A DNA stretch of 64,000 nucleotides from Candidatus Kaiserbacteria bacterium CG10_big_fil_rev_8_21_14_0_10_47_16 (GCA_002773395.1 PFBI01000006.1:335860-399859), one strand, 5' to 3'. Counted from the stretch's first letter, positions 10,985 through 58,556 are shown. Numbers and translations: made by a program. Notes: generated by a model not told the origin, from the sequence alone.

Positions 10985-11058
10985 AATGAAGATACGATAC
11001 CATATTTTCCAGCGTCTGCCGAAAAGGTTTATTTTAATGAAGATTCTGGTAGACTGGG

Positions 11059-12443: not shown

Positions 12444-12655
12444 CCATCTCTAAAAATTGGTATCTCCATTGTCGTGCTACAAAAAATAAATCTCACCGTA
12501 CCATTACGTACGCCTCGTTTTATTTTTCTCGCACTTCGCGGATATCCTCAATTTTGAGCGATGCTTAGATGAGACCGTTTTTCCTTGTTATTTCAAGCCG
12601 TTCTGCTATACTGCGCGCATAATTTTGGAGGTAATTTATACATTTTTTAGTTATT

Positions 12656-13261: not shown

Positions 13262-13280
13262 TCAAACGAGCGTGTAAGCC

Positions 13281-13316
13281 AAAAATTGCAGTGTCTTCCG
13301 ACACTGCAATTTTTTG
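13281..13316 (+). terminator. Rho-independent terminator after ndk (TTGCAGTGTC-TTCC-GACACTGCAA + T7)
   Basis: 10-bp stem followed by a U-tract. Confidence 0.65.
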
Positions 13317-13549
13317 ATATACTGTATCTGGAACCGCATATCGTATGTTCCGGTTACATTTGCAACGGGCTGCCTGCAATCGCAAGGAGTAATGAGAATC
13401 AAAGCGATTTTCAGACACGAATTGGAAAGGGTGCCCACCTAGAGCTTACACCTAGGAGCATGCGTTTGTGGTTCCACAATAGGTCGTAGGGTGACGCGTT
13501 GCCCTGCGTTTTTTTGTACCTGAAGAGCGTGGTACACTATTTTCATCAT

Positions 13550-13930
13550 ATGCGCCCACTTACTTTTTTACTTCTCACCAGTGCTTCGATACTGGCTGTA
13601 TCACACTTTTTTGCGCTGCACTTCTATCTGTACTGGATTTATCTTTGGCTTGATATACCAATGCACATACTTGGGGGAGTCACCGTTGCGCTCGTATTTT
13701 TTGTCATTGATGACTATGCTATTCCATACGTTCCACGCGTCCGTCGATTTCTTCCATTTATTCTTGCCGTCTTTGCAGTGGGACTGCTCTGGGAATACTT
13801 TGAGGTATGGGCCGGTGTCGCTACACAGCCTAACTACTGGCAGGACACGATTGGAGACCTCGTCATGGACCTCGTTGGAGGAAGCATCGGATACATCGTC
13901 GCCACCCGCATACGAACATTAGAGGTATAA
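13550..13930 (+). CDS. Hypothetical polytopic membrane protein (possibly VanZ-like)
   Basis: Four hydrophobic helices. The track ORF starts at 13499; the likely start is the internal Met at 13550. Confidence 0.45.
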   Translation: MRPLTFLLLTSASILAVSHFFALHFYLYWIYLWLDIPMHILGGVTVALVFFVIDDYAIPYVPRVRRFLPFILAVFAVGLLWEYFEVWAGVATQPNYWQDTIGDLVMDLVGGSIGYIVATRIRTLEV

Positions 13931-13937
13931 AATTTAT

Positions 13938-20599: not shown

Positions 20600-21523
20600 T
20601 TAGTTCGAGTGGAACTTTTTATGCACTTCTCGGAGGTGTTTGTCGGTTACGTGTGTATATATCTGTGTTGTCGCAATATTTGCATGCCCCAACAGCGCTT
20701 GCACAGAGCGCAGGTCGGCGCCGTTTGAGAGGAGGTCTGTCGCAAAACTGTGACGGATAACGTGCGGCGTTACCTTGCGGGTAATTCCTGCAATAGTGGC
20801 GTACCGTTTAATGATGCGCTGTACGCTTCGTGGTGTCAGTCGTAAATCTTTATTGTCTTTTTGTGTCATCTTTGCGTTCTTCCCATACTGAATAAAGAGT
20901 GCGTCATCCATATCCTTTCGTGACTTCACGTATTCACGAATTGACTGTTTTGCTTTGTCAGAGAGAAAGACCACGCGAATTTTATCACCCTTCCCGCGTA
21001 TAGAGAACTCATCACGTGAGAGATCAACATCTTCAATAGAGAGGCCGCAGAGCTCCGAGACGCGGAGCCCGGTTGAAAACAAGAGCTCAAGAATGGCTTT
21101 ATCGCGCAGTCCTTGCTCGGTAGCACGATCGGGCGCATTCATAAGACGGCTGAGTTCTGCAGGAGAAATAAGGTCGAGTGACCGTTCAGGAACCTTCGCC
21201 AACTCAATACGTTCTGGATCGAGCGAGGAAATGTTCCGTTTTCGGAGATATTTCAGAAAGGCGCGGAGCGCAATCAGGTAGTAATTCTGTGTTCGTCGCT
21301 TCAACGTATCGGTTGTTCTTCCCGTTTTTGTCCCCGGCTGACGATTGAGCCACAGGCGGTACTCACGCACCATGCTTTCAGTAACTTTTTTTGGGTCAGT
21401 TACTTTTGCGTAGTCCAAAAAACGGGTGAGGTATCGATCATAGTTTGATACGGTATGAATACTTCGTCCACGCTCAATTTCGAGGTATTCCAAAAATTGT
21501 TGTTTTGCTTCCGCGAGGTTCAT
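20600..21523 (-). CDS. Tyrosine recombinase XerC/XerD family
   Basis: C-terminal catalytic R...HxxR...Y signature (HVIRHSFAT...LGHANIATTQIYTHV). The likely start is the MNLAEAK Met, since the track ORF extends 30 nt further. Confidence 0.85.
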   Translation of the reverse strand: MNLAEAKQQFLEYLEIERGRSIHTVSNYDRYLTRFLDYAKVTDPKKVTESMVREYRLWLNRQPGTKTGRTTDTLKRRTQNYYLIALRAFLKYLRKRNISSLDPERIELAKVPERSLDLISPAELSRLMNAPDRATEQGLRDKAILELLFSTGLRVSELCGLSIEDVDLSRDEFSIRGKGDKIRVVFLSDKAKQSIREYVKSRKDMDDALFIQYGKNAKMTQKDNKDLRLTPRSVQRIIKRYATIAGITRKVTPHVIRHSFATDLLSNGADLRSVQALLGHANIATTQIYTHVTDKHLREVHKKFHSN

Positions 21524-21613
21524 ATATAGCAGTATTGTAGCACTCCATTCCACAGCAACTGCACCGCTGCACTCGCTGTGTAACGTATACTATATATGTA
21601 ACAAACACACGTC

Positions 21614-22492
21614 GTGAGTAGTCGTATTCGTATTGGAGTAGCACTGGTAGTTGGAGTCGTCATCATCGGCGGGGCCTTTTATCTACGCGGACAAACAGAA
21701 GTATTGCCCACAGGAATTCTCTCTGTTTCTGGCAGCCCTACTCGCGGGTCTATTGCCGAGACCGACAAAAACAACAACGGTATCAACGACTGGGAGGAGT
21801 CATTGCAAACTCTCACCATCAACTCTGCATCGAAAACCGGCACCGCGATCGCGGCAGGCGGTGACTACGAGCCTAAAACGTTGACCGATCGTTTTGCTCA
21901 AAAGTTTTTTGAAGAATATACAACCTCAGACGCAAGCGGTTCCTCCGACCCAGCTGCGCAGCAGGCCTTTTTAAATTCTTCTATCGCACAGCTCAGCGGG
22001 GAAGCGTTGGACACACCCTACACACAAAAAGATATTCGTATCGGCGATTCTTCACCACAAGCCCTGCGCGATTACGGAAATAATATTTCAGACATTGTGA
22101 ATCGTTACTCGGGTGCGAGTACAGAAAACGAACTTACCGTATTTGCCCGTGTCATCGACAATGACAATGCGAAAGATTACCAAACACTTACAAACATCAG
22201 TACCGCATATAGCAAGGTTCTTGCTGATACACTGGTACTAGCGGTACCACCCGAACTTGCTTCTTCGCATCTCCTTCTTGTGAATGCGTATCTTGCTGTT
22301 CAGGCCGATGTCGCCGCAATGGCAAATGCAAAAACTGACCCACTCTACGCTCTCGTACGTGTAAAGCGATACGAGGAAGACGCCAAAGCGCTGTACGCCG
22401 TTTTCAATACCATATATTCGTACCTCTACTCAAGTGGCGTACGATACGCGAGCGATGAACCGGGATCAATATTCCAAGTAGCAGGGAACTAG
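21614..22492 (+). CDS. Hypothetical membrane-anchored secreted protein (first gene of the T4SS-like operon)
   Basis: N-terminal TM (IGVALVVGVVIIGGAFYL) followed by a hydrophilic domain. No known family. Confidence 0.55.
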   Translation: MSSRIRIGVALVVGVVIIGGAFYLRGQTEVLPTGILSVSGSPTRGSIAETDKNNNGINDWEESLQTLTINSASKTGTAIAAGGDYEPKTLTDRFAQKFFEEYTTSDASGSSDPAAQQAFLNSSIAQLSGEALDTPYTQKDIRIGDSSPQALRDYGNNISDIVNRYSGASTENELTVFARVIDNDNAKDYQTLTNISTAYSKVLADTLVLAVPPELASSHLLLVNAYLAVQADVAAMANAKTDPLYALVRVKRYEEDAKALYAVFNTIYSYLYSSGVRYASDEPGSIFQVAGN

Positions 22493-22498
22493 CACACT

Positions 22499-23881
22499 AT
22501 GACGGACACAACACCAACACAAAAAAACAGGTGGTCTCTCGCACGATATGCCGTTACCTTGGTTCTTATTTTGTCTTTTGCTGCGGCTCCACTTTCAATA
22601 ACATCCTCGCTCCATATACAAAAACAAGAAGCTGCTGCGCAGTGGTCGGTACTTGATGCCGCCAACCTTGTGAAGAACACGTTCGTTGCCGCAATCCAAA
22701 ATTCACTTCAAGTAAAGGAGTTCTCTCTCGACGCGATTGCATACGCACTTGCGAAGCAGGCAATTCAATCAATGACGACGAGTATTGTGCAGTGGATTAA
22801 CTCCGGCTTTAAGGGGAGTCCTGCCTTCGTCCAAAACCTCGAGTTCCATTTAAACTATCTGGCCGACCGTGTGGCGTCTGAATTCTTCTCTGAGCTCGGA
22901 GGTGGATTTCTCTGTGCGCCATTCCAACTCAATGTGCGTGCTGCAATTTCTTTGCAGTACAACAATAATAAATACTACAAGAACCGCGGACAGTGCAGCC
23001 TCTCAAGCGTCGCTGCAAATATTGAAAACTTTGGTAAGGCGGGCGTCACCTCAAGTTGGGGGAACTTCATGCAAGTGGCAATGTACCCACAAAACAATCC
23101 GTACGGATCAATGGCACTCGCACAACAGGAACTGACCCTCCGTATTGTGAACGCGCGCAATCAGGAAGTTGAACTTCTTAGTTTCGGTGACGGATTCCTT
23201 TCGTACCGCGATACAGAGGACGCATGGTGTATAGGACAACCGGTTGAGAAGTGTCCTGTTATAACACCGGGGAAGGTTATCTCTGAACAGCTCAACAAAT
23301 CGCTTGGCGCAGGTCAGGATGTATTGGTAAGTGCCGACGAAATCAACGAAATAATCGGTGCACTCTTTGCGCAACTCACGACACAAGCTATCACCGGAGT
23401 AAACGGACTCCTCGGGGTTTCTTCAGGCCAGAACGGTAGTCAATCGTATCTCAATCAGGTAAACAGTGACAAAACGAAAGTAGGATACGACGCTTCAAGT
23501 TACACAAACGTGACTCAAACCCTTCAAACCGAACAGACCTTCCTCAGTCTCAACGAACAAATTGTGACCACAATAAATGGCGCTGCGACGCTTTCGTGTT
23601 CACAGTCACTCCCAACAAGTCTTGTGACTGCACGATCAACTGCATCGGCTGCGGTCACCAGCACTCGCACAAACGTTTCTCGCCTTGAAGGGTTCCAGAG
23701 TCAATTAAGCGGAACGTCAAATTCTAAGGAACAAGAAACGATCTTCTCACAGTTCCAAGCATTTGCATCATCTGGAGTACTTCATTCACCAGCTACCGTT
23801 ACAAGTCTCCAGAATACGGTCGATAGTATTACTGCTGCAGTCACCAGTTACGAGGCGTCATACTGTAAAACAACTCCATAA
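22499..23881 (+). CDS. Hypothetical membrane-anchored secreted protein, Cys-containing
   Basis: N-terminal TM and a 430-aa extracytoplasmic domain. It starts 7 nt after the previous gene. Confidence 0.55.
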   Translation: MTDTTPTQKNRWSLARYAVTLVLILSFAAAPLSITSSLHIQKQEAAAQWSVLDAANLVKNTFVAAIQNSLQVKEFSLDAIAYALAKQAIQSMTTSIVQWINSGFKGSPAFVQNLEFHLNYLADRVASEFFSELGGGFLCAPFQLNVRAAISLQYNNNKYYKNRGQCSLSSVAANIENFGKAGVTSSWGNFMQVAMYPQNNPYGSMALAQQELTLRIVNARNQEVELLSFGDGFLSYRDTEDAWCIGQPVEKCPVITPGKVISEQLNKSLGAGQDVLVSADEINEIIGALFAQLTTQAITGVNGLLGVSSGQNGSQSYLNQVNSDKTKVGYDASSYTNVTQTLQTEQTFLSLNEQIVTTINGAATLSCSQSLPTSLVTARSTASAAVTSTRTNVSRLEGFQSQLSGTSNSKEQETIFSQFQAFASSGVLHSPATVTSLQNTVDSITAAVTSYEASYCKTTP

Positions 23882-23883
23882 GT

Positions 23884-25971
23884 ATGTTCTCTTTTGCTCA
23901 CAACAAAAAACATCTCCTCATAGCTGCTCTTTTTGTGTGTTCACTTGCATTCACGGCGTTGAGCGCCCCCCAATACGCACATGCACAAACACCTGCCGCA
24001 CAACCCGCGGCAACCACTGGAACTGCCGCAACTCCAACAGCAACTGCACCCGCTGCAGCTACCACTGAGAGCCCAAAAGAGACAGGGGGAGGGGTAGGGA
24101 GTTTCCTTGGGAACCTCGTACTCAGTCTCGGTGGTGCTATCGCCGGTCTTGGCGGATGGCTTCTTGATGGAGCGATTGATAAGTTTGTCATCCACATTGC
24201 CGACGGCCTTCATGCAAACGAACCTCTCGGCAAGGCGATCTCAACACTCTGGACCGTCGTGCGCGACATAGTGAACCTCGTATTCATTTTCGGGTTTGTG
24301 TACATTGGTATTCGCACCATCATCGATCCGAGTCGAGCACAAACAAAGTCCTTCCTCTCGCAACTCGTTGTTGCTGCACTCCTCGTCAACTTTAGTCTCT
24401 TCTTTGTAAAGTTTGTGATCGATATCGCAAATGTCACCTCGCTCGAAATTTATAATCTTATTGGGGGTGGGCAGGGGAATATCGCGGCGCAGTTTGCGGC
24501 GCATGTTGGCGTGCCCGACTGGTTTACAGCAAAAGACCCTGAGCAACTTGCACAACTTTCTGGCGAAACCGCCCTTGTCTACTACATTATGGCAGCCCTC
24601 TTCCTCATCATTGCCGGATTCACCTTTGCTGCTGGTGCATTCCTCCTCGTCTCCCGCTACATCGTGCTCATTCTCCTCATGATTTTTTCACCGCTTATCT
24701 TTGCGGCAATGGTGTTCCCACAACTCGGAAAAATCGGAGGCGGCCTCATGGGAAGACTCATCAACTATGCCTTCATGGCGCCCGCCTATCTTTTCTTACT
24801 CTATCTCTCACTCTCAGTGGTTGTCGCAGCGAGCCCTAGTAAGGCAACAAGTATTCGTGATGTCTTCGCAGGAGGTATCAATGGCTCGAGTACCAATGGT
24901 GATATTTCAATCATTCTCGTCTTCTTTATTGGTATTGGACTGCTCATCGCTTCACTCCAAGCCGCAAAGGCGCTTGGGGTCGCCGGATCCCAACAAACAC
25001 TTAAGTTTGGGAATTATCTTCGTGGACAAGCCCAAAGCTTTGTTGGTAGAAACACTGTAGGTCGTGCCGGCGACATGGCTTTGAAAGCGTATGAAAAGGT
25101 GGACGCAAAAGCGACGAGTTCGAAGACTGGGCGATTCCTTCGCGGAGCCGTTTCTGTTGCATCTGTTGGTGTCCTGAGTGACCGAAGTGTCCGCACAGGT
25201 CTGCAAAAAACTTCTGGCGCGAAATTCGGTGGGACAACTTCGTTTACTGACGCTAAAAAGTATGATGAGGATCTCAGTAAACGACGCTCTGGTCTGCGCG
25301 CTGAGATGCAACGCGAAAAAGATATTGAAAAAGGTATTGGTCTTGCGAATACTGATCTTAGTAAACTTTCTGAAGATGAGAAGAAAGTCCATTCAGAGGA
25401 CATGCAAAAGATGGTTGATGCCATTGAGGATCTTACTGCAGACCAAATGAAAGACCTCGAGCTCAACATTCTTACAAATGAGGATGTGGCTGTGCACCTT
25501 TCAATGAAACAAATTGAAGGTCTTGAAAAGACTGGTAAGTACTCTGACGCTCAAATTGAAAGTATTAAGGACGCCAAGAAAGCTGGTACACGTGCCATTG
25601 CGCTCAACACAAACGGTCGCGGTGAAATGAAGGTTGGTGGCCGAACGCAGCAAGAGCGACTGGTAAAGCAAAATGTAAACGACGTTGGCGCTCTCCATGT
25701 TTCAATCTTCAAAGCTCGCGATATGGCAAGATACCTTACTCCGGCAATGGTTGAGGCTCGCATGCAGCGTGGCATCACTGAACAAGATCTCTTTGATCCG
25801 AATGAGAAGGACCCTGACCAAGTGGGTATCCGGCAAAGTCTTAATACGTACCTCAATGATACCGACACCCCACAGAGTGTTATTCAGCAGTGGGCTAAGT
25901 GGAAAGAGAAGTCACCGGTATACGCAGCGCGCCTTAATCTCGACATTCCTGACTCCTCAACGAATAATTAG
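23884..25971 (+). CDS. VirB6/TrbL-like polytopic membrane protein with a signal peptide, Thr/Ala/Pro-rich linker and a C-terminal coiled-coil cytoplasmic domain
   Basis: Signal peptide, at least 6 hydrophobic helices, 695 aa, and a position next to PrgI/VirB4 genes. The assignment rests on topology and context, not motif identity. Confidence 0.45.
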   Translation: MFSFAHNKKHLLIAALFVCSLAFTALSAPQYAHAQTPAAQPAATTGTAATPTATAPAAATTESPKETGGGVGSFLGNLVLSLGGAIAGLGGWLLDGAIDKFVIHIADGLHANEPLGKAISTLWTVVRDIVNLVFIFGFVYIGIRTIIDPSRAQTKSFLSQLVVAALLVNFSLFFVKFVIDIANVTSLEIYNLIGGGQGNIAAQFAAHVGVPDWFTAKDPEQLAQLSGETALVYYIMAALFLIIAGFTFAAGAFLLVSRYIVLILLMIFSPLIFAAMVFPQLGKIGGGLMGRLINYAFMAPAYLFLLYLSLSVVVAASPSKATSIRDVFAGGINGSSTNGDISIILVFFIGIGLLIASLQAAKALGVAGSQQTLKFGNYLRGQAQSFVGRNTVGRAGDMALKAYEKVDAKATSSKTGRFLRGAVSVASVGVLSDRSVRTGLQKTSGAKFGGTTSFTDAKKYDEDLSKRRSGLRAEMQREKDIEKGIGLANTDLSKLSEDEKKVHSEDMQKMVDAIEDLTADQMKDLELNILTNEDVAVHLSMKQIEGLEKTGKYSDAQIESIKDAKKAGTRAIALNTNGRGEMKVGGRTQQERLVKQNVNDVGALHVSIFKARDMARYLTPAMVEARMQRGITEQDLFDPNEKDPDQVGIRQSLNTYLNDTDTPQSVIQQWAKWKEKSPVYAARLNLDIPDSSTNN

Positions 25972-25980
25972 TATCGGCAT

Positions 25981-26451
25981 ATGAATTCAAATTGGGATAC
26001 CTTTCAAGAAAAATATAGAGCGGCTCCACCGCACATTCAGAATATTATAGATTCTGATGTGATCTTACTTTTCGTGAGAAAAATTAAATCCGCATGCGAT
26101 TTGCCTGTTCTAAAAACAGACGACCTAATAATTCTAGTCAGTGACTGTGTACTTGGAATACAAAAACCTGAAGAGCTTTTTAACTCGGAGATTTTTGCAG
26201 CCGTCTCGGCAGAGAAGCGGGGGAAGGTGATTGATATGATTAACGATTTTGTAAAAAATCCTCCAAGTGTGCCTACCTCCGCTGCAGATCCTGTGGAAAT
26301 TGCACCTGTTGCAGCACTGGATCAAGATTCTGCGAATGTCACTCAAAGTGAACCTCCAAAGACTCCTTCGCCTGGACCTACTCAGCTGCCGCAGCGGTAC
26401 ATGAAGCCGCTCACTGAGATGCCGCGATATGACGATAAGGGTCGGCGGTAG
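25981..26451 (+). CDS. Hypothetical cytoplasmic protein
   Basis: ORF in the operon with no TM segments and a Pro-rich C-terminus. Confidence 0.5.
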   Translation: MNSNWDTFQEKYRAAPPHIQNIIDSDVILLFVRKIKSACDLPVLKTDDLIILVSDCVLGIQKPEELFNSEIFAAVSAEKRGKVIDMINDFVKNPPSVPTSAADPVEIAPVAALDQDSANVTQSEPPKTPSPGPTQLPQRYMKPLTEMPRYDDKGRR

Positions 26452-26515
26452 TCTCTCGAGAATCTTTCAACGTCGTCACTTCAGATTTCTGGTTCGACTG
26501 TTGTACAATGGATGA

Positions 26516-26947
26516 ATGCGCTTTGAGGTACCACAGTTTATTGAAATCGAAGACAAGATCATTGGCCCATTCACGTGGAAGCAATTCATTTATATTGCTG
26601 GCGGTGGGGGAGCGGTACTTGTGTTGTATTTCACCCTTCCGTTTATACTCTTCGCCATACTTGGTGTTCCGATTGCGGCACTTGCGGGCTTCCTCGCATT
26701 CCACAAAATAAACAATCGGCCCTTCTCAGTCTTCCTTGAATCAATGGTAAGCTATTTTATGGGGAACAAGCTGTACCTATGGAAGAAAAAACAAGGTCAA
26801 ATCATTACCGCAGAGAAGACGCTCTATAAAAGTCCTGTTGCAGAAGCTCCAACATCATCACCTGTTCCAGGGAATGACAATATTTCTTCACTTGCGCGCA
26901 AGCTTGAGATGAATGCACTTGAGAACCCTACCCCTGACCAACAATAA
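26516..26947 (+). CDS. PrgI-family (VirB3-like) small membrane protein of Gram-positive-type T4SS
   Basis: The N-terminal DKIIGPFTWKQFIYIAGG motif resembles the PrgI family signature (KIFGPLTLRQFIYL). Two TM helices, and it lies directly upstream of VirB4. Confidence 0.6.
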   Translation: MRFEVPQFIEIEDKIIGPFTWKQFIYIAGGGGAVLVLYFTLPFILFAILGVPIAALAGFLAFHKINNRPFSVFLESMVSYFMGNKLYLWKKKQGQIITAEKTLYKSPVAEAPTSSPVPGNDNISSLARKLEMNALENPTPDQQ

Positions 26948-26952
26948 CTACT

Positions 26953-27594
26953 ATGCCTTCTTCAACGAAACAAACCTCAGCACAAGACTTTGTACCGATC
27001 GCCGACATTAGAGACGGTGTCGTTATTTTAAAAGATGGCCAGATGTGCAGTGTTCTCCTTGCCTCATCAATCAACTTCGCGCTCAAATCGACCGACGAAC
27101 AAACTGCCATCTTGGCGCAGTTCCAAGCATTCCTCAACACCCTCGATTTTTCAATACAAATGCACGTCGAGTCGAGACGTCTCGATATTCGACCGTATCT
27201 TGAGATGCTCGCGACCCGCGAGAGTACCCAATACAACGATCTCATGCGCACACAGCTTCGCGAATACATGGAGTTTATTCGTTCATTTACTGAAGAGGTG
27301 GATATCATGGCGAAGCGCTTTTTCCTTGTCATTCCGTACAGCCCGACGACAACCAACGTGCGGAGCAACATCACAAGCTTCCTTGGGCGTCGGTCTACGG
27401 CACCCTTTGATGCAAACCGCTTCCGTGAGCATCAAACCCAACTCGAGCAACGCGTTGATGTGGTCACACAAGGGCTCGCACGTATTGGTGTGAAGACACT
27501 TCCACTCGGAACCGACGAGCTCACCGAACTCTATTACCACATCTTTAATCCGGGGGAGCAGTCGGCTGCACCACGCCCAACAAATGCTATATGA
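26953..27594 (+). CDS. VirB4/TraC-family N-terminal domain encoded as a separate ORF
   Basis: The IADIRDGVVILKDGQMCSVLLASSINFALKSTDEQTAIL...SIQMHVESRRLDI pattern is typical of the VirB4/TrbE N-terminal domain. Its stop overlaps the next start (ATATGA). Confidence 0.6.
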   Translation: MPSSTKQTSAQDFVPIADIRDGVVILKDGQMCSVLLASSINFALKSTDEQTAILAQFQAFLNTLDFSIQMHVESRRLDIRPYLEMLATRESTQYNDLMRTQLREYMEFIRSFTEEVDIMAKRFFLVIPYSPTTTNVRSNITSFLGRRSTAPFDANRFREHQTQLEQRVDVVTQGLARIGVKTLPLGTDELTELYYHIFNPGEQSAAPRPTNAI

Positions 27595-29411
27595 GTGTTT
27601 TTGATTTTCTAAAAAAGAAGCCCGCAGCGCCGCAACCACCTTCTGATGGTACGCCAACAGATATTTCCGCAGGCACCGGTATGAATATCCCTGATATTAT
27701 TGCGCCTGCTGCAATCAGTATCAACCCGCAAAGTCTCAATGTGAGCGGACGTCTTTCGCGCGTCTTCTTTGCAGTGTCATACCCACGATATCTCAATGAC
27801 GGCTGGCTCGAACCAATCCTCAACCTCTCACGCGAGATGGATATTTCTATTGTGGTACACCCGATCAACACAGCAGATACGCTGAAGAAATTCCAAAAGA
27901 AAGTTGCCGAGGTACAGAGCCAAATTGCTGACCGTGAAGGACGTGGGCAAGTGCGTGATCCACAACTTGAGGCGGCATACCGAAACCTCGAAGACCTCCG
28001 TGACAAGCTCCAACAAGCAGAAGAGAAGCTCTTTGACGTTGGTTTCTATATTGCAATTTACGGCGACACTGAGGCAGAGCTCAGCAAAACGGAAACGGAA
28101 ATTAAAAGTATTCTTGACGCCCGTCTCGTCTACATTAAGCCGGCAGTATTCCAGCAGGAACAAGGGTTCCGAAGTATTTTGCCAACTGCGCGCGATGAGC
28201 TTTTGGTACACAACAAGTTTAATTCGTCACCGCTCTCAAGCTTTTTCCCATTCACCTCATTCGACCTCACGTCTGACACGGGGATTCTCTACGGCATCAA
28301 CCGCCACAACTCATCACTCGTTCTCTTTGATCGATTCTCACTTGCCAACTACAACTCAGTGACCTTTGCAACCTCTGGTGCAGGGAAGTCATACGCAGTA
28401 AAGCTCGAGATTCTTCGGTCAATGATGTTTGGGACGGAGGTGATTGTCATCGACCCTGAACACGAGTACGAGTACCTCGCAGAAGCAACCGGCGGACGGT
28501 TCTTTAATATTTCACTTTCTTCAGACCACCATATCAATCCGTTCGATCTTCCGATGCCACAGGCAGATGAGAACCCTGAAGATGTTCTCCGTTCACATAT
28601 CATCGAGCTCGTTGGCCTCTTTAAACTCATGCTTGGTGGACTTACGCCTGAAGAAGACGCCTTGATCGATCAAGCGCTTCGCGAAACGTACGCCCTCAAA
28701 GACATTACCGGAGCCTCTGATTTCTCGAGCCTTGAACCACCACTTCTGTCTGACTTCGAAATGGTACTCGCGGGAATGGAGGGGAGTAGTTCACTCCTCA
28801 GTCGTCTCTCAAAGTACACCACGGGTACATGGGCAGGTTTCATGAATAAGCCCACAAACGTAGATATCAACCAGAAGTTTATTGTGTTCTCTCTCCGCGA
28901 CATGGAAGAGGAACTCAAGAGTATTGCGATGTATATTGTGACAAACCACATTTGGGGAGCTATCCGCCGAGAACTTAAAAAGAGACTCCTCGTTATTGAC
29001 GAGGCATGGTGGATGCTCAAACAAGAGAGCACTGCAGAATTCCTTCACGGCATTGCAAAGCGCGGTCGCAAGTACTACCTCGGTCTCGCAACAATTACAC
29101 AGGACGTGGACGATTTCTTGCGCTCACCATACGGTGTCCCAATGATCACCAACTCCTCGATGCAGCTTTTGATGAAGCAGTCGCCGACGGCGATCGATAC
29201 CCTCCAGCAAGTGTTCAATCTCACCGACGAGGAGAAGTATTTGCTCCTTGAGTCAGGAGTGGGGGAGGGGATATTCTTTGCAGGACTCAAGCATGTGGCT
29301 ATTAAGGTGATCGCTTCTTACACTGAAGACCAGATCATCACCTCCGATCCATCGCAGCTGCTCCAAATAAAGGCAGCCCGACAAGAGTTTCAGAATGCGG
29401 CAGGACACTAG
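27591..29411 (+). CDS. VirB4-like type IV secretion ATPase (C-terminal ATPase portion)
   Basis: Walker A ATSGAGKS and the VirB4-specific DEAW Walker B (VIDEAWWML). Length 606 aa; together with the upstream ORF it totals about 819 aa. Confidence 0.75.
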   Translation: MSVFDFLKKKPAAPQPPSDGTPTDISAGTGMNIPDIIAPAAISINPQSLNVSGRLSRVFFAVSYPRYLNDGWLEPILNLSREMDISIVVHPINTADTLKKFQKKVAEVQSQIADREGRGQVRDPQLEAAYRNLEDLRDKLQQAEEKLFDVGFYIAIYGDTEAELSKTETEIKSILDARLVYIKPAVFQQEQGFRSILPTARDELLVHNKFNSSPLSSFFPFTSFDLTSDTGILYGINRHNSSLVLFDRFSLANYNSVTFATSGAGKSYAVKLEILRSMMFGTEVIVIDPEHEYEYLAEATGGRFFNISLSSDHHINPFDLPMPQADENPEDVLRSHIIELVGLFKLMLGGLTPEEDALIDQALRETYALKDITGASDFSSLEPPLLSDFEMVLAGMEGSSSLLSRLSKYTTGTWAGFMNKPTNVDINQKFIVFSLRDMEEELKSIAMYIVTNHIWGAIRRELKKRLLVIDEAWWMLKQESTAEFLHGIAKRGRKYYLGLATITQDVDDFLRSPYGVPMITNSSMQLLMKQSPTAIDTLQQVFNLTDEEKYLLLESGVGEGIFFAGLKHVAIKVIASYTEDQIITSDPSQLLQIKAARQEFQNAAGH

Positions 29412-29455
29412 GTGTCCTGTTTTGCTTTTTTATTTGGTCTCTTTCCCTTTATACT

Positions 29456-30235
29456 GTGTCTATGGCTCGTGAATCAGCAGAACGTATTGAAGCAAATGAT
29501 TCATTTCCTTCTACGCGGGTACAAAATGCCCAAGCAGTTTCTTCGAGCCGCCAGACTGTCCACTCTGACTTCGCACAAAGCAAGAGCTTGCAGGCGAAGG
29601 TCCACGAGCAACGTTTCAATAAACCAAAGGCAGCGAATGATAACTTCTCGCAAGCTGCAAATGACAACAGTCCATCACTGACGCAACGTGTACTGCGTCG
29701 TGATGCAAAAGAGGACATTGAGGAACAATCGCTTGCCGGCACCATTCTCTCTACTGGGAAAGCTGCGAAGGGAACGGCTATCGCAGCCGAACGTGTTGCT
29801 GCAACCGCTGTGCTTCTTTACTCCATCGCTGCAATCACATACGTGTTTATATTTATATTTGGCGTTATTGCGCTTGGTCTGATCTACGCAGGAACGTCAT
29901 CAGTTCTTGGAGTCAGTCTTGACGGTGTCGTAAAAGGGGCGACGACCGTGCTCTCGTGGTTTGGTTTGGGTGATGGCGGTGTTGGGGTTAGTGATATTGG
30001 GGGCGTACTGTGGGCCTTCGCTGTGCTTTTTGCTTTTATTGGGTATCTCGTTATTGGAGTTATAGCCACCTTTACACTCCGCACCAACTTCCTTGATTCC
30101 TCTGAGTTCTTTCTTGTGACCGTAGTGACACTTGGAGCAAGTATGGCGCCCGTTTCACAGCTCTTTCCATGGATTGCCGTATGGGTGTTCTATATCCAAG
30201 CAACCACTATTACGAAAGCACTGAAAAAGAGGTAG
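29456..30235 (+). CDS. Hypothetical membrane protein (cytoplasmic N-terminus, 4 C-terminal TM helices)
   Basis: ORF in the operon with its hydrophobic C-terminal half. Confidence 0.5.
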   Translation: MSMARESAERIEANDSFPSTRVQNAQAVSSSRQTVHSDFAQSKSLQAKVHEQRFNKPKAANDNFSQAANDNSPSLTQRVLRRDAKEDIEEQSLAGTILSTGKAAKGTAIAAERVAATAVLLYSIAAITYVFIFIFGVIALGLIYAGTSSVLGVSLDGVVKGATTVLSWFGLGDGGVGVSDIGGVLWAFAVLFAFIGYLVIGVIATFTLRTNFLDSSEFFLVTVVTLGASMAPVSQLFPWIAVWVFYIQATTITKALKKR

Positions 30236-30269
30236 GGCTTTCCTCACATGCCAGCGTATCGCGCGCATA

Positions 30270-31274
30270 GTGCATGGTAAGCTATATGATATGAAGAGTG
30301 TATCGATTACCTCCACACTTATTGCTGTCTTTTTTGTATGTGTATGCAGTTTCTTCCTTGTTTTTGCAGGATATGTACACGCGCAGTCTTTTGCTGACGA
30401 AGCATCACTTGAAGTGTCCCCACGCACCCCCGCTCCATTTAGTACAGTGACAGTTTCTCTTAATGCGTACACCCTCGATACCGTTGGCGCTTCTATACGG
30501 TGGTATATAGATGGCACTGAATCTACGAATGTGCGCAATGAGCGTGCAATCACGCTCATTGCGAAGGATCTTGGAGAGGCAACCGTTGTACGCGCCACAC
30601 TCACACTCGCAAGTGGAGTACCGCTTACCGTCTCAACGACCATCGTACCGACATCCATTGATCTTATTATTGAAGCAGATACATTGGTGCCGAGTTTCTA
30701 TAAAGGACGTGCTCTTCCTGTGAGCGGTGCGCCGCTTACATTAATAGCTATCCCACACGATGGTAGTAATAAAGGACCAGGGTCTTATTCATACTCATGG
30801 AAGTTAGGAGAAGATATACTCTTTGGTGGTTCTGTTATGGGGAAATATCGCATCACCACTACAATGCCGCAATACTCACGACCACTCGTTGTTACTGTTT
30901 ATGATTCAACAGGGAAGACAGTTGGGAGTGCTGCGGTCAATCTTGAGCCTGTGAGTCCAGAGCTATACTTCTACGAAACAAATCCTCTCCGCGGACTTTC
31001 AGAGCGTGCGGTAAATGGTTCGTACACACTCATTGGTGACGAAGTCACCATGCGCGCTGAGCCATACTTCATGACTGCAAATATCTTTTCGCAAAGTCCG
31101 CTTATCGCGTGGACGATTGACGGTCGCGAAGTAGCGACCAACGAGACCGACTCCGGCTCAATCACGCTGCGACGAGAGGGTGGAAGCGGTTCTGCTAATA
31201 TCGGTTTCCGTCTTTCGAACCAAGCACAATTCTTACAGCATGTGACCGGTTCATTTAATTTGAGTTTTCAATAA
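30270..31274 (+). CDS. Hypothetical secreted protein with three roughly 100-aa beta-rich repeats
   Basis: Signal/TM anchor followed by an internally repeated domain (...TVSLNAYT... / ...LTLIAIPHDG... / ...EVTMRAEPYF...). Confidence 0.5.
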   Translation: MHGKLYDMKSVSITSTLIAVFFVCVCSFFLVFAGYVHAQSFADEASLEVSPRTPAPFSTVTVSLNAYTLDTVGASIRWYIDGTESTNVRNERAITLIAKDLGEATVVRATLTLASGVPLTVSTTIVPTSIDLIIEADTLVPSFYKGRALPVSGAPLTLIAIPHDGSNKGPGSYSYSWKLGEDILFGGSVMGKYRITTTMPQYSRPLVVTVYDSTGKTVGSAAVNLEPVSPELYFYETNPLRGLSERAVNGSYTLIGDEVTMRAEPYFMTANIFSQSPLIAWTIDGREVATNETDSGSITLRREGGSGSANIGFRLSNQAQFLQHVTGSFNLSFQ

Positions 31275-31277
31275 TAT

Positions 31278-32240
31278 ATGACGTACGCTACTCGTAACAT
31301 TCTGTACATAACACTCTCTGCACTCTTCACATTCTTTGTCTGTGCATCGTATGCCCTTGCTGCAGCAGATCCGTACGTACCACTCGTAGGAATCCCAGGG
31401 GTTGAGACCACGGGTAAAGCAGGTCTCACTACGTACCTCAATCAGCTCTTTATTCTCACCATTATTGGAGGGGCGCTCATCGCAGTGGTGAAGATATCAA
31501 TCGCTGGCTTTAAGTGGATGATGACTGATAGTATGTCAACCAAAGGTGACGCACGTGCAGATATTACCGGAGCGCTTCTTGGACTTGGTATTCTTCTCGC
31601 AACCTACGTGGTACTCAACACCATCAACCCTGACCTCACACGTTTGGACGTCCTTAGAAACGCTCCCGCGACATCGTATATCACACCGCAGAATTCAAAT
31701 GGCGGCACTGGCGCTGCCGCAAGCGCGGGTGTTCCACAAACAATAGACTCCGTGACCGTAAGTAGTGACAAGTCTCAAGCGGAAGCTTTGGCAGAGGCCC
31801 AAACCGCTGCCACCTCTGGTGATGCTGCAGCAGAATGCCGAGCAAAGGGGGCGACACCTCGAATTAAACCAGTGTTGGGGGATAATTACCAAGTAACTGC
31901 CAATGATATTATCTGCCCAACAGCAGCCTCCGACAGCGGGAGCAAGGGATATTCCGGACCGAATGCAAAAGCTGACGCAGACGCTTCCGTTGCTGCCTGT
32001 AACGAGGCTAATGGGAAAGGTTCCTCTGCTCAACAGCTGTGGGGAAATGAGGCCTCATACGTAGTGACGTGCGATTGGGATGTAATCGCACAAAACTTCT
32101 CAACCAAAACCACCGCTGAAGCCGCGGTCAAAACATGTACAACTGCAGGAAGGGCCGCAGAAGTTAAAACAGCTGGATTCTTTTCTTCTGGATACACGGC
32201 AAACTGTTCGAGTTTGACCGGCGAGTGGCCACCAAAATAA
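31278..32240 (+). CDS. Secreted protein whose N-terminal roughly 120 aa resemble a VirB2/TrbC-type pilin (signal peptide plus two hydrophobic helices), with a roughly 200-aa Cys-containing C-terminal extension
   Basis: Topology only: a signal peptide ending ALAAA, then hydrophobic segments LFILTIIGGALIAVV and ALLGLGILLATYVVL separated by a short polar loop. Confidence 0.3.
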   Translation: MTYATRNILYITLSALFTFFVCASYALAAADPYVPLVGIPGVETTGKAGLTTYLNQLFILTIIGGALIAVVKISIAGFKWMMTDSMSTKGDARADITGALLGLGILLATYVVLNTINPDLTRLDVLRNAPATSYITPQNSNGGTGAAASAGVPQTIDSVTVSSDKSQAEALAEAQTAATSGDAAAECRAKGATPRIKPVLGDNYQVTANDIICPTAASDSGSKGYSGPNAKADADASVAACNEANGKGSSAQQLWGNEASYVVTCDWDVIAQNFSTKTTAEAAVKTCTTAGRAAEVKTAGFFSSGYTANCSSLTGEWPPK

Positions 32241-32243
32241 TTT

Positions 32244-33473
32244 ATGAAAAAAACTCTCATCATCACTATTGGCGTTCTCATCCTCATTCTTGTCGTGGGG
32301 GTATGGGCTTACCTCTTTATGTTTGGAACACCAAAGAGCACCGGTGAAGTATTTGCAAACTTTGGACTCGGGAACAATGATGCAGTAACCACTCCAACGA
32401 CAACCAATGACGGCACCTCGCTCCCGATAAGTGATTCGGTATTTAACAATGTTATCGAAGCGCGAACATTCCAACAACTCACCACGAAGCCAGTGGCAGG
32501 AATGACCTTTGTCGGAAGTACGACTATTCGGTACATGGAGCAGGGGACAGGGTACATATTTGATATTGATACAGAAACAGGCACCGAGCGACAAGTTGTC
32601 GGCAACACCTTCACAAAGGTGCGTAGTGCGGTCTTCTCGCTCGATGGTACATCAGTTGCACTCACACGCGATGAAGGACGTGCATCACGTATCACAGTAG
32701 GAACCATTGTGGAGGGCGAGGGAAGGGACACACTCCGAAGCGTTAATCTCCCGCTTGGATCATCCGAGCCCCACTTTAGTACCACTGCCACAAGCACCTT
32801 CAACTATCTCTACACCACAGCTGCTGGTGGGACGGGCCACGCGTACAACGTACTGACAGGGAACGACAGTGTCCTCTTCACCATTCCGTTTACGTCTGCA
32901 CACATCCTTTGGGGTACCCACACCTATGTGTACACAAAACCAACCGCTGAGCTTGCGGGGTATGTGTACGAAATAAAGAACGGGTCACTTGGTTTCGTAA
33001 CGAACGGTGGTACCGGGCTTATGGCGACAGCATATGCTGGCGGAGTGATCACAACGCTCTCAAACAGTCCAACAATGTTTTCTAGCGTCAACCCACAAAG
33101 TGGTGGTGATTCTTCCACACTTCCTGTTTCAGTTATCCCTGAGAAATGTACGTTCTTGGACCGTATACCCAATGAGCTTGTCTGCGCTGTACCCGCAACT
33201 CTCCCGGATGATGCCACCTACCCGGATGATTGGTATAAGGGGGTGATTTCATTTGCTGACCGGTTTTGGTTAATTGATACAGCGAACGGAAGTGCCCGGT
33301 TAGTTGCTGATCCGACCGCTGACGCTGGTCGAGACGTTGACGTTCTCAAACTTGAGGTAAACGGTGAGGGAACACAGTTCCTCTTCATTAACAAAAATGA
33401 CAACACGCTTTGGCTTCTCAATTTGACTGACACCAGTTTTGTCCCCGAAGACACCGCTACTACTGAAAACTAA
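32244..33473 (+). CDS. Hypothetical membrane-anchored secreted protein (last gene of the operon)
   Basis: N-terminal TM and a 380-aa extracytoplasmic domain. It is followed by the hairpin AACCGGTGCCCATGGGCACCGGTT + T-run. Confidence 0.5.
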   Translation: MKKTLIITIGVLILILVVGVWAYLFMFGTPKSTGEVFANFGLGNNDAVTTPTTTNDGTSLPISDSVFNNVIEARTFQQLTTKPVAGMTFVGSTTIRYMEQGTGYIFDIDTETGTERQVVGNTFTKVRSAVFSLDGTSVALTRDEGRASRITVGTIVEGEGRDTLRSVNLPLGSSEPHFSTTATSTFNYLYTTAAGGTGHAYNVLTGNDSVLFTIPFTSAHILWGTHTYVYTKPTAELAGYVYEIKNGSLGFVTNGGTGLMATAYAGGVITTLSNSPTMFSSVNPQSGGDSSTLPVSVIPEKCTFLDRIPNELVCAVPATLPDDATYPDDWYKGVISFADRFWLIDTANGSARLVADPTADAGRDVDVLKLEVNGEGTQFLFINKNDNTLWLLNLTDTSFVPEDTATTEN

Positions 33474-33518
33474 TTGGCTACTATAAAAATAACCGGTGCC
33501 CATGGGCACCGGTTATTT

Positions 33519-34283
33519 TTATATTTGTTTTTCAAGTTCTTCTGGGAGCACATGTGGATGCCGTTTCCGAACGACGTACTCTTGTGCAATACCGAAGATG
33601 TTACTAACTGCGAAGTAGAGAGCTATAGCTGCTGAGATTGTATACCCAATCACAAAGATAATGATTGGCATACCGTACTTCATTTGTATCTGCATACTGC
33701 GACTGAAATCATCTTTGAAGTTTGGTGTCGCATCTTTTTCGCGAGGTTTCAGTGGTGGGAGTGACATCTTCATAAGGACGTACTGTGAGAGACCTGCGAT
33801 GAGCGCGATCGGGAAACTCTTTGCAGCCATATCAACAGCACCGAGAAAGAGCATCGATGCTGTTTCTGGGTTTGGAATAAAACTATAAAGGATTGCGGTG
33901 TTGATTTCAGGCAAGTGTACGCCTCCACCACGTGCTACTGAGAAGTAGAGCGCAATAATGATTGGGATTTGGATAAACAGAAGGAGAATACTTGAGAAAG
34001 GATTTACGCCCGCTTTCTTGTAAAGCTCCATCATGTGCTTCGCCAGTTCTTCGCGCTTATCTTTGTACTTCTCTTGTATCCGTTTGAGTTCCGGTTCAAT
34101 AAGTCTCATTGCACGCTGTGTATGCGCAGCCTTCATTGAGAGAGGGAGGAGTACCGTCTTTACCACAATAGTGGTGAAGACAATCGCAAGTCCTATATCT
34201 CCTCCGGGTACGACGTCAATAAAAAAGACAAGGATGTTATATACAGGATCAAAGAATATGGTGTGCCAAAGATTTAAAAACAT
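33519..34283 (-). CDS. yidC: Membrane protein insertase YidC (short form)
   Basis: YidC/Oxa1 core with 5 TM helices, downstream of rnpA as in most bacteria. Confidence 0.85.
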   Translation of the reverse strand: MFLNLWHTIFFDPVYNILVFFIDVVPGGDIGLAIVFTTIVVKTVLLPLSMKAAHTQRAMRLIEPELKRIQEKYKDKREELAKHMMELYKKAGVNPFSSILLLFIQIPIIIALYFSVARGGGVHLPEINTAILYSFIPNPETASMLFLGAVDMAAKSFPIALIAGLSQYVLMKMSLPPLKPREKDATPNFKDDFSRSMQIQMKYGMPIIIFVIGYTISAAIALYFAVSNIFGIAQEYVVRKRHPHVLPEELEKQI

Positions 34284-34636: not shown

Positions 34637-34774
34637 TTATACACTGAGTTTTGCTCGTCCTTTTCGTCTACGTGACTGGAGGATTTTTGACCCTGACTTC
34701 GTGCCGCTTCGCACAAGGAAACCGTGCGTTGTTGCGCGTTTTCGTTTCTTTGGCTGATACGTTCGTTTTGGCAT
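34637..34774 (-). CDS. rpmH: 50S ribosomal protein L34
   Basis: Manual translation gives [45 protein letters not shown] (45 aa), a canonical L34. It is not in the ORF track because it is under 60 aa. Confidence 0.8.
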
Positions 34775-36422: not shown

Positions 36423-36714
36423 AGCCCTCGAAACCCCTGTGTACTACCTGTGAATATCGATGGTAAAATCACTGTGGAAGACTCGGTATGAATGTGTGTA
36501 TAAACGACAAATAATTTACACTTATGCACACATATACACCGACAGCCCAAATAGGTAGAGTATATGCACACCAATGTGAGGGTGAGTACACAGTTTTTCT
36601 TTCAGAGTGTTGATGAGATAAAGGTGAAGGTATACGGTAAAATTGGTTTATACACCTATCCACACTCCTAATAGGGAATAGTGGTTTTAGAAAAAATAAA
36701 TAATAAGAACAGTT
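36423..36714. other. Putative oriC segment with DnaA-box-like 9-mers and an AT-rich unwinding element between dnaA and dnaN
   Basis: TTATNCACA-like sites are visible (TGTGTATAA, TTATGCACA, TTATACACC, TATCCACAC, TTATGCACA at the dnaN start), along with an AT-rich run TTTTAGAAAAAATAAATAATAAGAA. More boxes (TATCCCCACA, TTTTCCACAAA) lie between rpmH and dnaA. Confidence 0.5.
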
Positions 36715-37803
36715 ATGCACATCACGGTCGACCATATAAAACTCCAAAATCTTCTCGAAAGAGTTGCACGAGTGAGTACAAAACACCTCACACTCCCTGC
36801 GCTCCAATGTGTACTTCTTGATGTAAAAGAAAACACCCTCACTATTCGCGCAACAAATCTAGAGATAGGTATTGAAGGCACTATTGCAGTTGATGTAAAA
36901 GAAGAGGGAACAGTGAGTGTTATTGCGCAAACGTTTTTACAAATTGTTTCACTTATTTCACAAAAAGACGTAACACTTCACACAGAAGGTGATGTGCTTA
37001 TTGTGGAGACAAAAACATCACGCACAACAATCCATACAATTACTGCACAAGATTTCCCTCATATCCCAAAAGTGGAAGGGAAAGGACAGGTTATTAAAGG
37101 AACTATTTTTGCAAATGCAGTAAAGACGGCAGCGTTTGCTGCGTCACAGTCGTCTATTAAGCCAGAACTCGGCTCAGTGTATGTATTTCAAAAGAAGGAA
37201 CACACACTTACCTGTGTTGCGACAGACTCCTTCCGATTGGTAGAAAAAACAGTTTCCCAACAAAATGTTGTTCTTGAAGAGGGAATACTTATTCCCGCGA
37301 AGAATGCACTTGAACTCGCGCGACTCTGTGATTCCCAAGATGACGACCCAATGTTGTACATAACAGAGAATCAATGTGCGTTGCAGTTTGAGAACATCTA
37401 TATCACATCACGGCTTACGTCAGGAACCTTCCCTGACTACGCTCAGATCATTCCTAAGGAGTTTGTGAGCCATAGTACACTCCTTACCCAAGACCTGCAG
37501 AATGCGCTCAAGAAGACGAGTATATTCCTTAATAAGTTCATGCAGCTTACGATCGCGGCGTCAGCGCAAAATCTCACCCTTACCTCAAAAGGTGATGTAG
37601 GGACAACAACTGAGAAAACACCCGCAAGTCTTGAGGGGGATGAAATCTCCTTAAACTTCAACCAACGATATATCGCAGATATTTTAGGGTACATCACCGA
37701 CGAAAGTATAACGATTCACTTTGCAGGGACGGGGCGACCGATCATTATTGAAAGTGTGCACGATAAGTCACTCCGGTATTTGGTAATGCCAATGAATAAG
37801 TAG
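36715..37803 (+). CDS. dnaN: DNA polymerase III beta sliding clamp
   Basis: Three-domain beta-clamp length and sequence. Position after dnaA. Confidence 0.9.
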   Translation: MHITVDHIKLQNLLERVARVSTKHLTLPALQCVLLDVKENTLTIRATNLEIGIEGTIAVDVKEEGTVSVIAQTFLQIVSLISQKDVTLHTEGDVLIVETKTSRTTIHTITAQDFPHIPKVEGKGQVIKGTIFANAVKTAAFAASQSSIKPELGSVYVFQKKEHTLTCVATDSFRLVEKTVSQQNVVLEEGILIPAKNALELARLCDSQDDDPMLYITENQCALQFENIYITSRLTSGTFPDYAQIIPKEFVSHSTLLTQDLQNALKKTSIFLNKFMQLTIAASAQNLTLTSKGDVGTTTEKTPASLEGDEISLNFNQRYIADILGYITDESITIHFAGTGRPIIIESVHDKSLRYLVMPMNK

Positions 37804-54542: not shown

Positions 54543-54608
54543 ATTCTCAGTATACGCGATTGGAGAAGACTATTGTACCCATCACCGTGGTGGTACAATG
54601 TTTTCCAT

Positions 54609-55949: not shown

Positions 55950-56040
55950 TGTGTAGACGTGTGCTTGTCCCCAAAATAACGATACGTATGTGTATCGGCA
56001 AAGTGCTACACTAAGTAAAACGTGCTCGCACGTGTATTGT

Positions 56041-57072: not shown

Positions 57073-57076
57073 CGGT

Positions 57077-58474: not shown

Positions 58475-58556
58475 TTTTTCTTGTCCACAAAAGAAGCGCA
58501 ACGGCGAAGCCGTTTTGTGTACTCATGAGTGATACACTTATTCTATATAGTCATAT

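Follow-up and report, generated by a model that had tools for sequence, protein, structure and literature searches.

VirB4 genes are widespread in the Patescibacteria. The survey by Quinonero-Coronel et al. (2025; PMC12102498) reports VirB4 in 2,417 of 3,035 Patescibacteria genomes and describes it as a clade nested within the monoderm mating-pair formation (MPF) type MPF-FATA of type IV secretion systems (T4SSs). TrsD is given there as the most abundant VirB4 companion, and PrgI/VirB3, VirB6 and VirB2-like pilins are encoded near virB4. The survey finds relaxases almost absent, and homologs of VirD4, the type IV coupling protein (T4CP), present in many Patescibacteria, rarely adjacent and far from virB4; dnaA, dnaN, rnpA and rpmH are reported nearby in Paceibacteria and Microgenomatia. 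Transposon sequencing by Wang et al. (2023; PMC10633639) showed that T4SS genes, including pilins, are essential to epibiotic growth in S. epibionticum, a Saccharibacterium that lacks a coupling protein and a relaxase (PMC10633639) and in which comEC is dispensable whereas the T4SS genes are essential (PMC10633639; PMC12857230). A 2025 review describes these systems as unique among monoderm T4SSs (PMC12857230), while their function in Patescibacteria has been called completely unknown, the guesses being effector delivery or nucleic-acid uptake (PMC11665869). In addition, a 2026 preprint on the cultured Microgenomatia strain OT8 reports tube-like structures, which may be T4SS pili, along with uptake of host RNA (bioRxiv 10.64898/2026.06.21.733656). 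Here we describe a T4SS operon of Candidatus Kaiserbacteria bacterium CG10_big_fil_rev_8_21_14_0_10_47_16, located in a stretch of 64,000 nt (PFBI01000006.1:335860-399859), referred to below as the window, in whose coordinates all positions are given.

The locus, at 21614-33473 on the plus strand, is a genuine, intact, eleven-gene type IV secretion operon of an ultra-small bacterium of the Patescibacteria, or candidate phyla radiation (CPR). Its genes are labeled g1 to g11 from left to right. It is a typical member of the already described Patescibacteria-clade T4SS; accounts of this system, of the conjugation genes it lacks and of its place next to the replication origin appeared between 2023 and 2025. 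With that system (PMC12102498; S. epibionticum SEML1_0006-0019), the locus shares a VirB4 with a separate TrsD, PrgI/VirB3, VirB6 and a VirB2-like pilin, and likewise has no relaxase, no adjacent T4CP, a chromosomal dnaA/rnpA/rpmH neighborhood and a distribution confined to Patescibacteria. Differences were also seen. Saccharimonadia carry an array of several short pilins, whereas only one pilin gene is present here, its product having a C-terminal extension that is long and variable, and the peptidase or lysozyme (VirB1-like) genes found downstream of virB4 in the described system are missing. Five conserved accessory genes (g1, g2, g4, g9 and g11) bear no family name in the consulted text of PMC12102498.

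When g7, the VirB4 gene, was used to scan a single genome of each species, >529 relatives were returned, and the best 80 by VirB4 similarity were used for locus comparisons. An earlier, sequence-only reading of this DNA had called VirB4/VirB6/PrgI sets of this kind a recurring, uncharacterized feature of CPR genomes. They are recurring, as the >529 relatives and the exclusively patescibacterial best 80 attest, but they are not uncharacterized, as they are treated in PMC10633639 and PMC12102498. The roles proposed in that reading, namely DNA uptake or release, host-cell attachment and effector delivery, are those already discussed in PMC10633639, PMC11665869 and PMC12102498, and the reading as a whole is correct but not new. 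What is new consists of descriptive refinements for the Paceibacteria-type locus: a rigid ten- or eleven-gene order, fold and domain assignments for g1, g2, g9 and g11, a single pilin with a hypervariable extension, and the lack of VirB1-like and VirB8-like genes.

Core machinery of the operon

All eleven co-directional ORFs were recovered where the sequence-only reading had placed them, and public gene callers predicted the same set on three contigs of independent assembly, one from a JGI metagenome and two from Logan, differing only in the starts of g8 and g9, which were placed a few codons further downstream. Every ORF of the operon is intact. The spacing between neighboring genes, first described as gaps or overlaps of 0-40 nt, actually ranges from -4 to +64 nt, with the widest gap between g4 and g5 (64 nt), 44 nt between g7 and g8, and a 4-nt overlap between g6 and g7.

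One recognizable member is g7 (27591-29411, 606 aa), which aligned with positions 180-733 of NF045971 (conju_CD1110, the model for VirB4 of the CD1110 family) at 370 bits, where the cut-off is 325, and matched PF19044 (P-loop_TraG) at 2e-26. Its scores against the VirB4 models of the MPF-T and MPF-F types were far below that for NF045971. The motifs ATSGAGKS (Walker A, GAGKS) and DEAW (Walker B), which had been pointed out before, are both present and intact. By its sequence, g7 encodes the ATPase core of a monoderm-type VirB4 (MPF-FATA, CD1110/CTn2-like). The two best-scoring models were those of CTn2 of C. difficile (CD1110; 370 bits) and of the Mycoplasma integrative and conjugative element (ICE; Mbov_0397; 257 bits). 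Both of these are mobile conjugative elements with a relaxase and a T4CP, and their VirB4 is a single polypeptide, unlike the g6/g7 pair.

Directly upstream, g6 (26953-27594, 213 aa) matched the NCBIfam TrsD model at E 9.3e-7 and covered VirB4 models at positions 3-172; public precomputed annotation lists it as PF26593 (TraC-like). Members of the TrsD/TraD family are ~200 aa long and are encoded ahead of VirB4 on plasmids of staphylococci and enterococci, and g6 corresponds to the N-terminal domain of VirB4 encoded as a gene of its own. The sequence-only reading had taken g6 and g7 for one split VirB4 and had counted ten genes. A frameshifted gene or pseudogene is ruled out, however: among the related loci with both parts, 79 of 79 encode this TrsD and VirB4 pair in separate ORFs, of 205-237 aa and 595-712 aa, without a single fusion, and three independent assemblies of the source organism show the same separation. 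Because g6 and g7 are a natural pair of TrsD and VirB4 core, the operon has eleven genes and not ten. A small, separate VirB4 N-terminal protein directly upstream of the VirB4 ATPase is likewise encoded by pGO1, pSK41 and pIP501 (TrsD with TrsE, TraD with TraE), which also share the monoderm-type architecture without a VirB7/9/10 core. In contrast to the operon, those systems are plasmid-borne, possess a relaxase, a T4CP, a VirB1 hydrolase and a VirB8-like protein, and have no VirB2 pilin, whereas here those four components were not found and a pilin is present.

The gene preceding this pair, g5 (26516-26947, 143 aa), encodes a PrgI/VirB3-type membrane protein that matched PF12666 (PrgI) at E 3.3e-9 with 37.6 bits (cut-off 27) and contains the motif DKIIGPFTWKQFIYIAGG quoted in the sequence-only reading. 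It lies immediately 5' of g6 in 76 of 80 related loci. For g3 (23884-25971, 695 aa), the window protein itself gave no direct Pfam match; among 45 orthologs, 12 matched PF04610 (TrbL/VirB6; best 2e-8) and one matched TrbL_4. Hydropathy predicts a signal peptide, a Thr/Ala/Pro-rich linker, about six membrane helices (residues 71-360) and a hydrophilic C-terminal domain of ~320 aa. The VirB6 assignment holds because the ortholog matches, the signal peptide and the roughly six membrane helices agree, and g3 would represent an "extended" VirB6/TrbL protein with a poorly conserved C-terminus (16% identity, as opposed to 31% in the membrane core). A search of the PDB with the g3 family profile returned nothing usable. 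Taken as a whole, the Pfam and NCBIfam scans uphold PrgI, VirB4 and VirB6 as first proposed, the last by way of its orthologs.

The search for missing components covered the operon with Pfam and NCBIfam (g11 with Pfam only), and the flanks and the window ORFs of at least 243 aa with Pfam. The scanned flanks encode a CCA-adding enzyme, exonuclease III, a XerC-type recombinase, YidC, RnpA, DnaA and DnaN, and the other scanned ORFs include CorA, a beta-CASP RNase, RuvC, a Mur ligase, PBP1A, a PilB-type ATPase, five surface proteins and one ORF that weakly matched the delta subunit of DNA polymerase III. PolA, TyrRS and RuvB were confirmed against the PDB, while the secY and methionine aminopeptidase genes, outside the scans, are presumed from inspection by eye only. 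As the sequence-only reading had stated, no relaxase, no VirD4/TcpA-type T4CP and no VirB11 was found in the operon, the flanks or the scanned window ORFs, and an adjacent relaxase and T4CP, as expected of an ordinary integrated conjugative element, was likewise not found. Pfam and NCBIfam also detected no VirB8-like (NTF2-fold) or VirB1-like (lysozyme, CHAP or NlpC) component in the operon; bearing on this search, all-alpha bundles were modeled for g1 and g2, and g9 has Ig-like domains and g11 a propeller. No VirB7-10 homologs were detected, and the operon does not qualify as a CedA/CedB system: g7 matched CedB at E 8.6e-9 over only ~70 residues of the P-loop region, with 34.5 bits against a cut-off of 700. 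A PilB/GspE-type ATPase (MshEN and T2SSE, 568 aa) is encoded at 44705-46411, 11 kb from the operon and on the opposite (minus) strand. It is a type IV pilus ATPase and not VirB11, and it points to a separate type IV pilus system.

Conservation, inheritance and chromosomal setting

The best 80 of the >529 relatives were all Patescibacteria metagenome-assembled genomes, with VirB4 proteins 68-82% identical to g7, and were labeled as Kaiser-, Nomura-, Campbell-, Taylor-, Yonath- or Zambryskii-bacteria, Paceibacteria or generic "Saccharibacteria." Judged from these nearest neighbors, g7 appears to belong to the Patescibacteria VirB4 clade. Many loci with 70-82% VirB4 identity and identical synteny carry the name "uncultured Candidatus Saccharibacteria," others being named Kaiserbacteria, Paceibacteria or Parcubacteria; the former labels look like generic pipeline names and not real class assignments.

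As determined by tblastn and iterative hidden Markov model searches of the relatives' ORFs, gene order is kept across the related loci as g1-g2-g3-g4-g5-g6-g7-(g8)-g9-g10/g11, the last two genes (pilin g10 and propeller g11) being swapped in 19 of 64 loci. Wherever the sequence reaches past the operon (63 of 63 loci), yidC comes next in convergent orientation, usually with rnpA and dnaA behind it, and the VirB4(+)/yidC(-)/dnaA(+) arrangement is preserved. The downstream boundary is fixed in this way, whereas the upstream boundary varies among relatives. Identity to the window VirB4 correlated with that of DnaA (rho 0.77) and YidC (rho 0.79), values close to that between DnaA and YidC themselves (rho 0.75). 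With loci ranked by VirB4 similarity, median identities were 70% for VirB4, 53% for TrsD, 42% for PrgI and 57% for DnaA.

The Xer-type gene next to the operon, to which the sequence-only reading had drawn attention, is indeed present as a xerC-type tyrosine recombinase gene at 20600-21553 (minus strand), divergent from g1 and 60 nt upstream of it. It is not conserved at this place, however: one of the 80 related loci has it, at a position far from the operon, and this neighbor is incidental and carries no implication of a mobile element. The GC content of the operon (0.47-0.49) is the same as that of its surroundings. Fixed synteny with yidC, co-divergence of VirB4 with DnaA and YidC, flank-like GC content and the non-conserved Xer gene together argue that the operon is vertically inherited chromosomal core equipment and not an ICE. 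The earlier view that classical conjugation is unlikely is supported by this fixed synteny and by the missing relaxase and T4CP.

Downstream of the operon lie yidC, rnpA, rpmH (34637-34774, minus strand) and dnaA (35013), the last starting 1.54 kb past g11, in agreement with the ~1.5 kb noted before. Between dnaA and dnaN, four near-consensus DnaA boxes are clustered at 36495-36721, and the cumulative GC skew over positions 1-64000 reaches its minimum at ~36-38 kb. These two observations place oriC between dnaA and dnaN, ~3 kb from the end of the operon. If oriC lies at 36-38 kb, the T4SS operon would be transcribed toward the origin, head-on to replication, and the same would apply to the ribosomal-protein operon at 6.4-10.2 kb.

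Two hairpins may shape transcription of the operon. The stronger one, at 33482-33523 between the convergent g11 and yidC, has a 19-bp stem with T-runs on both sides and is likely a bidirectional terminator that closes the operon. A weaker one at 29399-29421 (plus strand), found by pattern match only, has a 10-bp stem followed by a T-run and coincides with the VirB4 stop codon; it is possibly an internal attenuator between the membrane and ATPase half (g1-g7) and the surface and pilin half (g8-g11).

Genes for nucleotide and RNA handling are gathered at 10409-15296, 6-11 kb upstream of the operon. They comprise two P-loop nucleotide-kinase-like genes identified by eye only (10409-10984, minus strand, and 11059-11670, plus strand), a nucleoside-diphosphate kinase gene (NDK; 12656-13261) and a gene for a beta-CASP/RMMBL RNase (13938-15296). 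This cluster may bear, circumstantially, on a life on host RNA.

The pilin and the accessory proteins

The protein previously described as pilin-like is encoded by g10 (31278-32240, 320 aa) and is a VirB2/TrbC-type pilin with a C-terminal extension. Among 45 orthologs, 41 matched PF18895 (T4SS_pilin; best 2.4e-10) and six matched TrbC/VirB2. The window protein itself matched weakly, at E 0.04 for T4SS_pilin and E 0.03 for Mbov_0395, the small pilin-like protein that the Mycoplasma ICE also encodes. In the alignment, a signal peptide is followed by two hydrophobic helices with a charged loop between them (residues 30-125) and then by an extension of ~195 aa that is hypervariable, variable in length and Cys-containing; identity is 37.5% in the core and 14.5% in the extension. 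The g10 family profile found nothing usable in the PDB. No further pilin gene, and no paralog of any operon family, was found elsewhere in the window, leaving g10 as the only pilin gene. The C-terminus of VirB2 lies on the outside of the filament, and because of this topology the g10 extension would decorate the pilus; by analogy, we infer that it is displayed on the pilus surface.

The sequence-only reading had assigned to six further proteins an N-terminal membrane anchor and large, beta-rich, internally repeated extracytoplasmic domains. Among the accessory proteins this description fits only g9 and g11; it does not fit g1 and g2, which are predicted to be all-alpha, g8, which is polytopic with a hydrophilic N-terminus, or g4, which has no membrane segment. 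In g9 (30270-31274, 334 aa), a signal peptide or anchor precedes three tandem Ig-like beta-sandwich domains of ~100 aa each, with invariant Trp residues at positions 78, 177 and 281. The family profile matched phage Hoc Ig domains at 6e-5, and orthologs matched BiPBP_C (17 of 45) as well as Ig_3 and PKD. The product of g11 (32244-33473, 409 aa) has an N-terminal membrane anchor according to hydropathy and a TolB-like beta-propeller; its family profile matched TolB propellers in the PDB at E 9e-7 to 5e-6, and a few orthologs matched propeller Pfams.

A duplicated two-gene module elsewhere in the window (55990-62290, plus strand) recalls the pair of g11 and g9 in its architecture, although no sequence relationship to either was detected. 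Each copy consists of a membrane-anchored propeller protein of the PD40/prolyl-oligopeptidase type (55990-57072 and 58557-59606; 29% identical) and, after it, a large surface protein (57050-58474 and 59603-62290; 44-66% identical), the longer of which contains CARDB. The module is preceded by a gene for an Ig/DUF11-like protein at 54402-55949 (plus strand).

The first gene, g1 (21614-22492, 292 aa), encodes an N-terminal membrane anchor (residues 5-23) and a thrombospondin-type-3-like Ca-binding motif, DKNNNGINDWEE (residues 51-62); TSP3_bac was matched by nine of 45 orthologs. The remainder is an extracytoplasmic all-alpha domain that AlphaFold2 (AF2) modeled as a four-helix bundle (pLDDT 70.6, pTM 0.71) from a thin alignment, the single-sequence homolog search having yielded four proteins and the profile search 16. 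The model showed only a generic likeness to periplasmic sensor domains. A VirB8-like identity for g1 is ruled out by this all-alpha fold.

In g2 (22499-23881, 460 aa; annotated as GW943_02800), an N-terminal hydrophobic segment is followed by a conserved core (residues 66-310; 46% median identity) with the motif WINSGFxGSPAFV and Cys, Trp and Gly residues that do not vary. Its variable C-terminal part was modeled with confidence as a three-helix bundle (residues 330-455), and g2 is predicted to be all-alpha. A few orthologs have additional Ig-like or F5/8 type C (lectin) domains. Against TrbJ models, six, two and one of 80 homologs matched, at best with 3e-5; no TrbJ match was obtained among 19 diverse members and the family consensus, hhalign gave the g2 family a probability of 0.3% against R751 TrbJ, and Foldseek returned nothing. 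Membership of g2 in the VirB5/TrbJ family is not upheld by these results, and a VirB5/TrbJ-like role is possible as a weak lead. The PDB likewise held nothing usable for the g2 family profile.

Two smaller genes complete the set. The product of g4 (25981-26451, 156 aa) has a Pro-rich tail, is presumably cytoplasmic, and gave no match in Pfam, NCBIfam or the PDB; it is conserved by position and by iterative search in 65 loci. The polytopic g8 protein (29456-30235, 259 aa, or 257 aa if the ATG at 29462 is the start) begins with ~105 hydrophilic residues followed by three to four membrane helices. It was found only in the 27 closest of the 80 loci and is clearly absent from some distant ones, in which g9 directly follows g7. 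Comparisons by hhalign with the pilin and VirB6 families were negative and speak against g8 being a second pilin or a VirB6 fragment.

Possible functions of the operon

We consider it likely that the operon is a chromosomal, vertically inherited Patescibacteria-clade T4SS that derives from monoderm conjugation machinery and is re-used for a non-conjugative purpose. By extension from established T4SS biology, VirB3, VirB6 and a VirB4 hexamer would form a platform in the cytoplasmic membrane, from which VirB4 would pull the pilin for polymerization into a pilus or tube whose exterior would carry the variable C-terminal domain. The conserved extracytoplasmic proteins g1, g2, g9 and g11 would then build or decorate the part that spans the wall and contacts the host. 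Lifestyle and literature suggest that the apparatus may sit at the site of host contact, moving macromolecules between host and episymbiont. Export of DNA led by a relaxase is unlikely because neither a relaxase nor a coupling protein is present. The sequence leaves the direction of transport undecided, and we lean slightly toward uptake of host material, that is, nucleic acid, over effector export.

Several points weigh against a vertically inherited, non-conjugative T4SS of this kind. The system is known here from its genes alone, as regards expression, assembly, pilus, substrate and direction of transport alike, and the experimental data come from other classes (Saccharimonadia and Microgenomatia) than that of the source organism, a requirement for host-dependent growth being known only for S. 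epibionticum. A coupling protein could sit elsewhere in the ~624-kb genome, the search having covered the 64-kb window. Passage through the wall is left unexplained by an operon in which the scans were negative for both VirB8-like and VirB1-like components, and AF2 gave only moderately confident models of g1 and g2. Moreover, the VirB4-based ranking of the 80 loci inflates the conservation of VirB4 relative to DnaA, and their co-divergence could also come from a linked region moving as a block.

Among the alternatives, a nucleic-acid import machine that feeds host DNA or RNA to an organism unable to make nucleotides survives best, as a tentative possibility. Such a machine would be functionally like ComB of H. 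pylori or the archaeal Ced system, both of which are VirB4-dependent, relaxase-independent and non-conjugative; they can serve as functional analogs only, as ComB has a diderm VirB7-10 core and Ced has CedA/CedB, and the operon is a member of neither family. Import is consistent with the missing relaxase and T4CP, is favored in the literature (PMC11665869; PMC12102498), and accords with the host RNA uptake and tube-like structures of strain OT8. The NDK gene, the two nucleotide-kinase-like genes and the beta-CASP RNase gene 6-11 kb upstream add circumstantial support, as does the short, weak match of g7 to CedB, although the latter is confined to the shared P-loop region. On the other hand, the operon has no recognizable DNA-binding, RNA-binding or nuclease component, and uptake has not been tied by experiment to any patescibacterial T4SS.

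Somewhat more doubtful is the export of protein effectors into or onto the host, in the manner of the T4CP-less Ptl system of Bordetella and VirB system of Brucella. Such precedents for protein secretion without a T4CP are described in PMC12857230 and PMC12102498, protein export was proposed as an alternative by Wang et al. (PMC10633639), and several proteins of the operon are predicted to be secreted or surface-exposed. Nevertheless, the operon and the genes next to it encode no candidate effector or toxin domain, and the conserved members of the operon all look structural.

A more specific proposal, which we regard as speculative and unlikely to be right in full, is that g1, g2 (possibly a VirB5-like tip), g4, g9 and g11 make up, together with the variable pilin domain, an undescribed extracellular part of a monoderm T4SS, namely a tube that pierces or binds the host and by which a Paceibacterium auxotrophic for nucleotides acquires nucleic acid from it. 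If this were true, the apparatus would have to be seen as an organelle essential for feeding and not as a secretion system. An adhesive pilus that attaches the cell to its host without any transport is improbable. The VirB2-type pilin with its hypervariable, displayed domain, the Ig-like and propeller surface proteins, and the lectin or Ig additions in some g2 orthologs would all suit adhesion, but type IV pili already serve this purpose in these organisms (as the PilB-type ATPase at 44705-46411 indicates), and a function beyond adhesion is in keeping with, though not proved by, the very high degree to which the VirB4 motor and VirB6 are conserved. Finally, an ordinary ICE, or its decaying remnant, with the Xer protein as integrase is ruled out for practical purposes: the tyrosine recombinase on the opposite strand upstream and a VirB4 of the type found on Gram-positive ICEs are outweighed by the missing relaxase and T4CP, the intact ORFs and Walker motifs, the flank-like composition, the co-divergence with DnaA and YidC, and a place beside yidC-rnpA-rpmH-dnaA that is fixed in 63 of 63 related genomes, as well as by the absence of the recombinase from that position in the relatives.

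The patescibacterial T4SS is one of a small number of envelope machines that are conserved and apparently essential in a huge bacterial radiation, most of which is uncultured. The Kaiserbacteria locus adds no new kind of system to it, but shows how rigid the Paceibacteria-type locus beside the origin is across dozens of species. The fold-level handles on four unnamed components and the variable extension of the pilin offer concrete structural and genetic targets once this class becomes manipulable.

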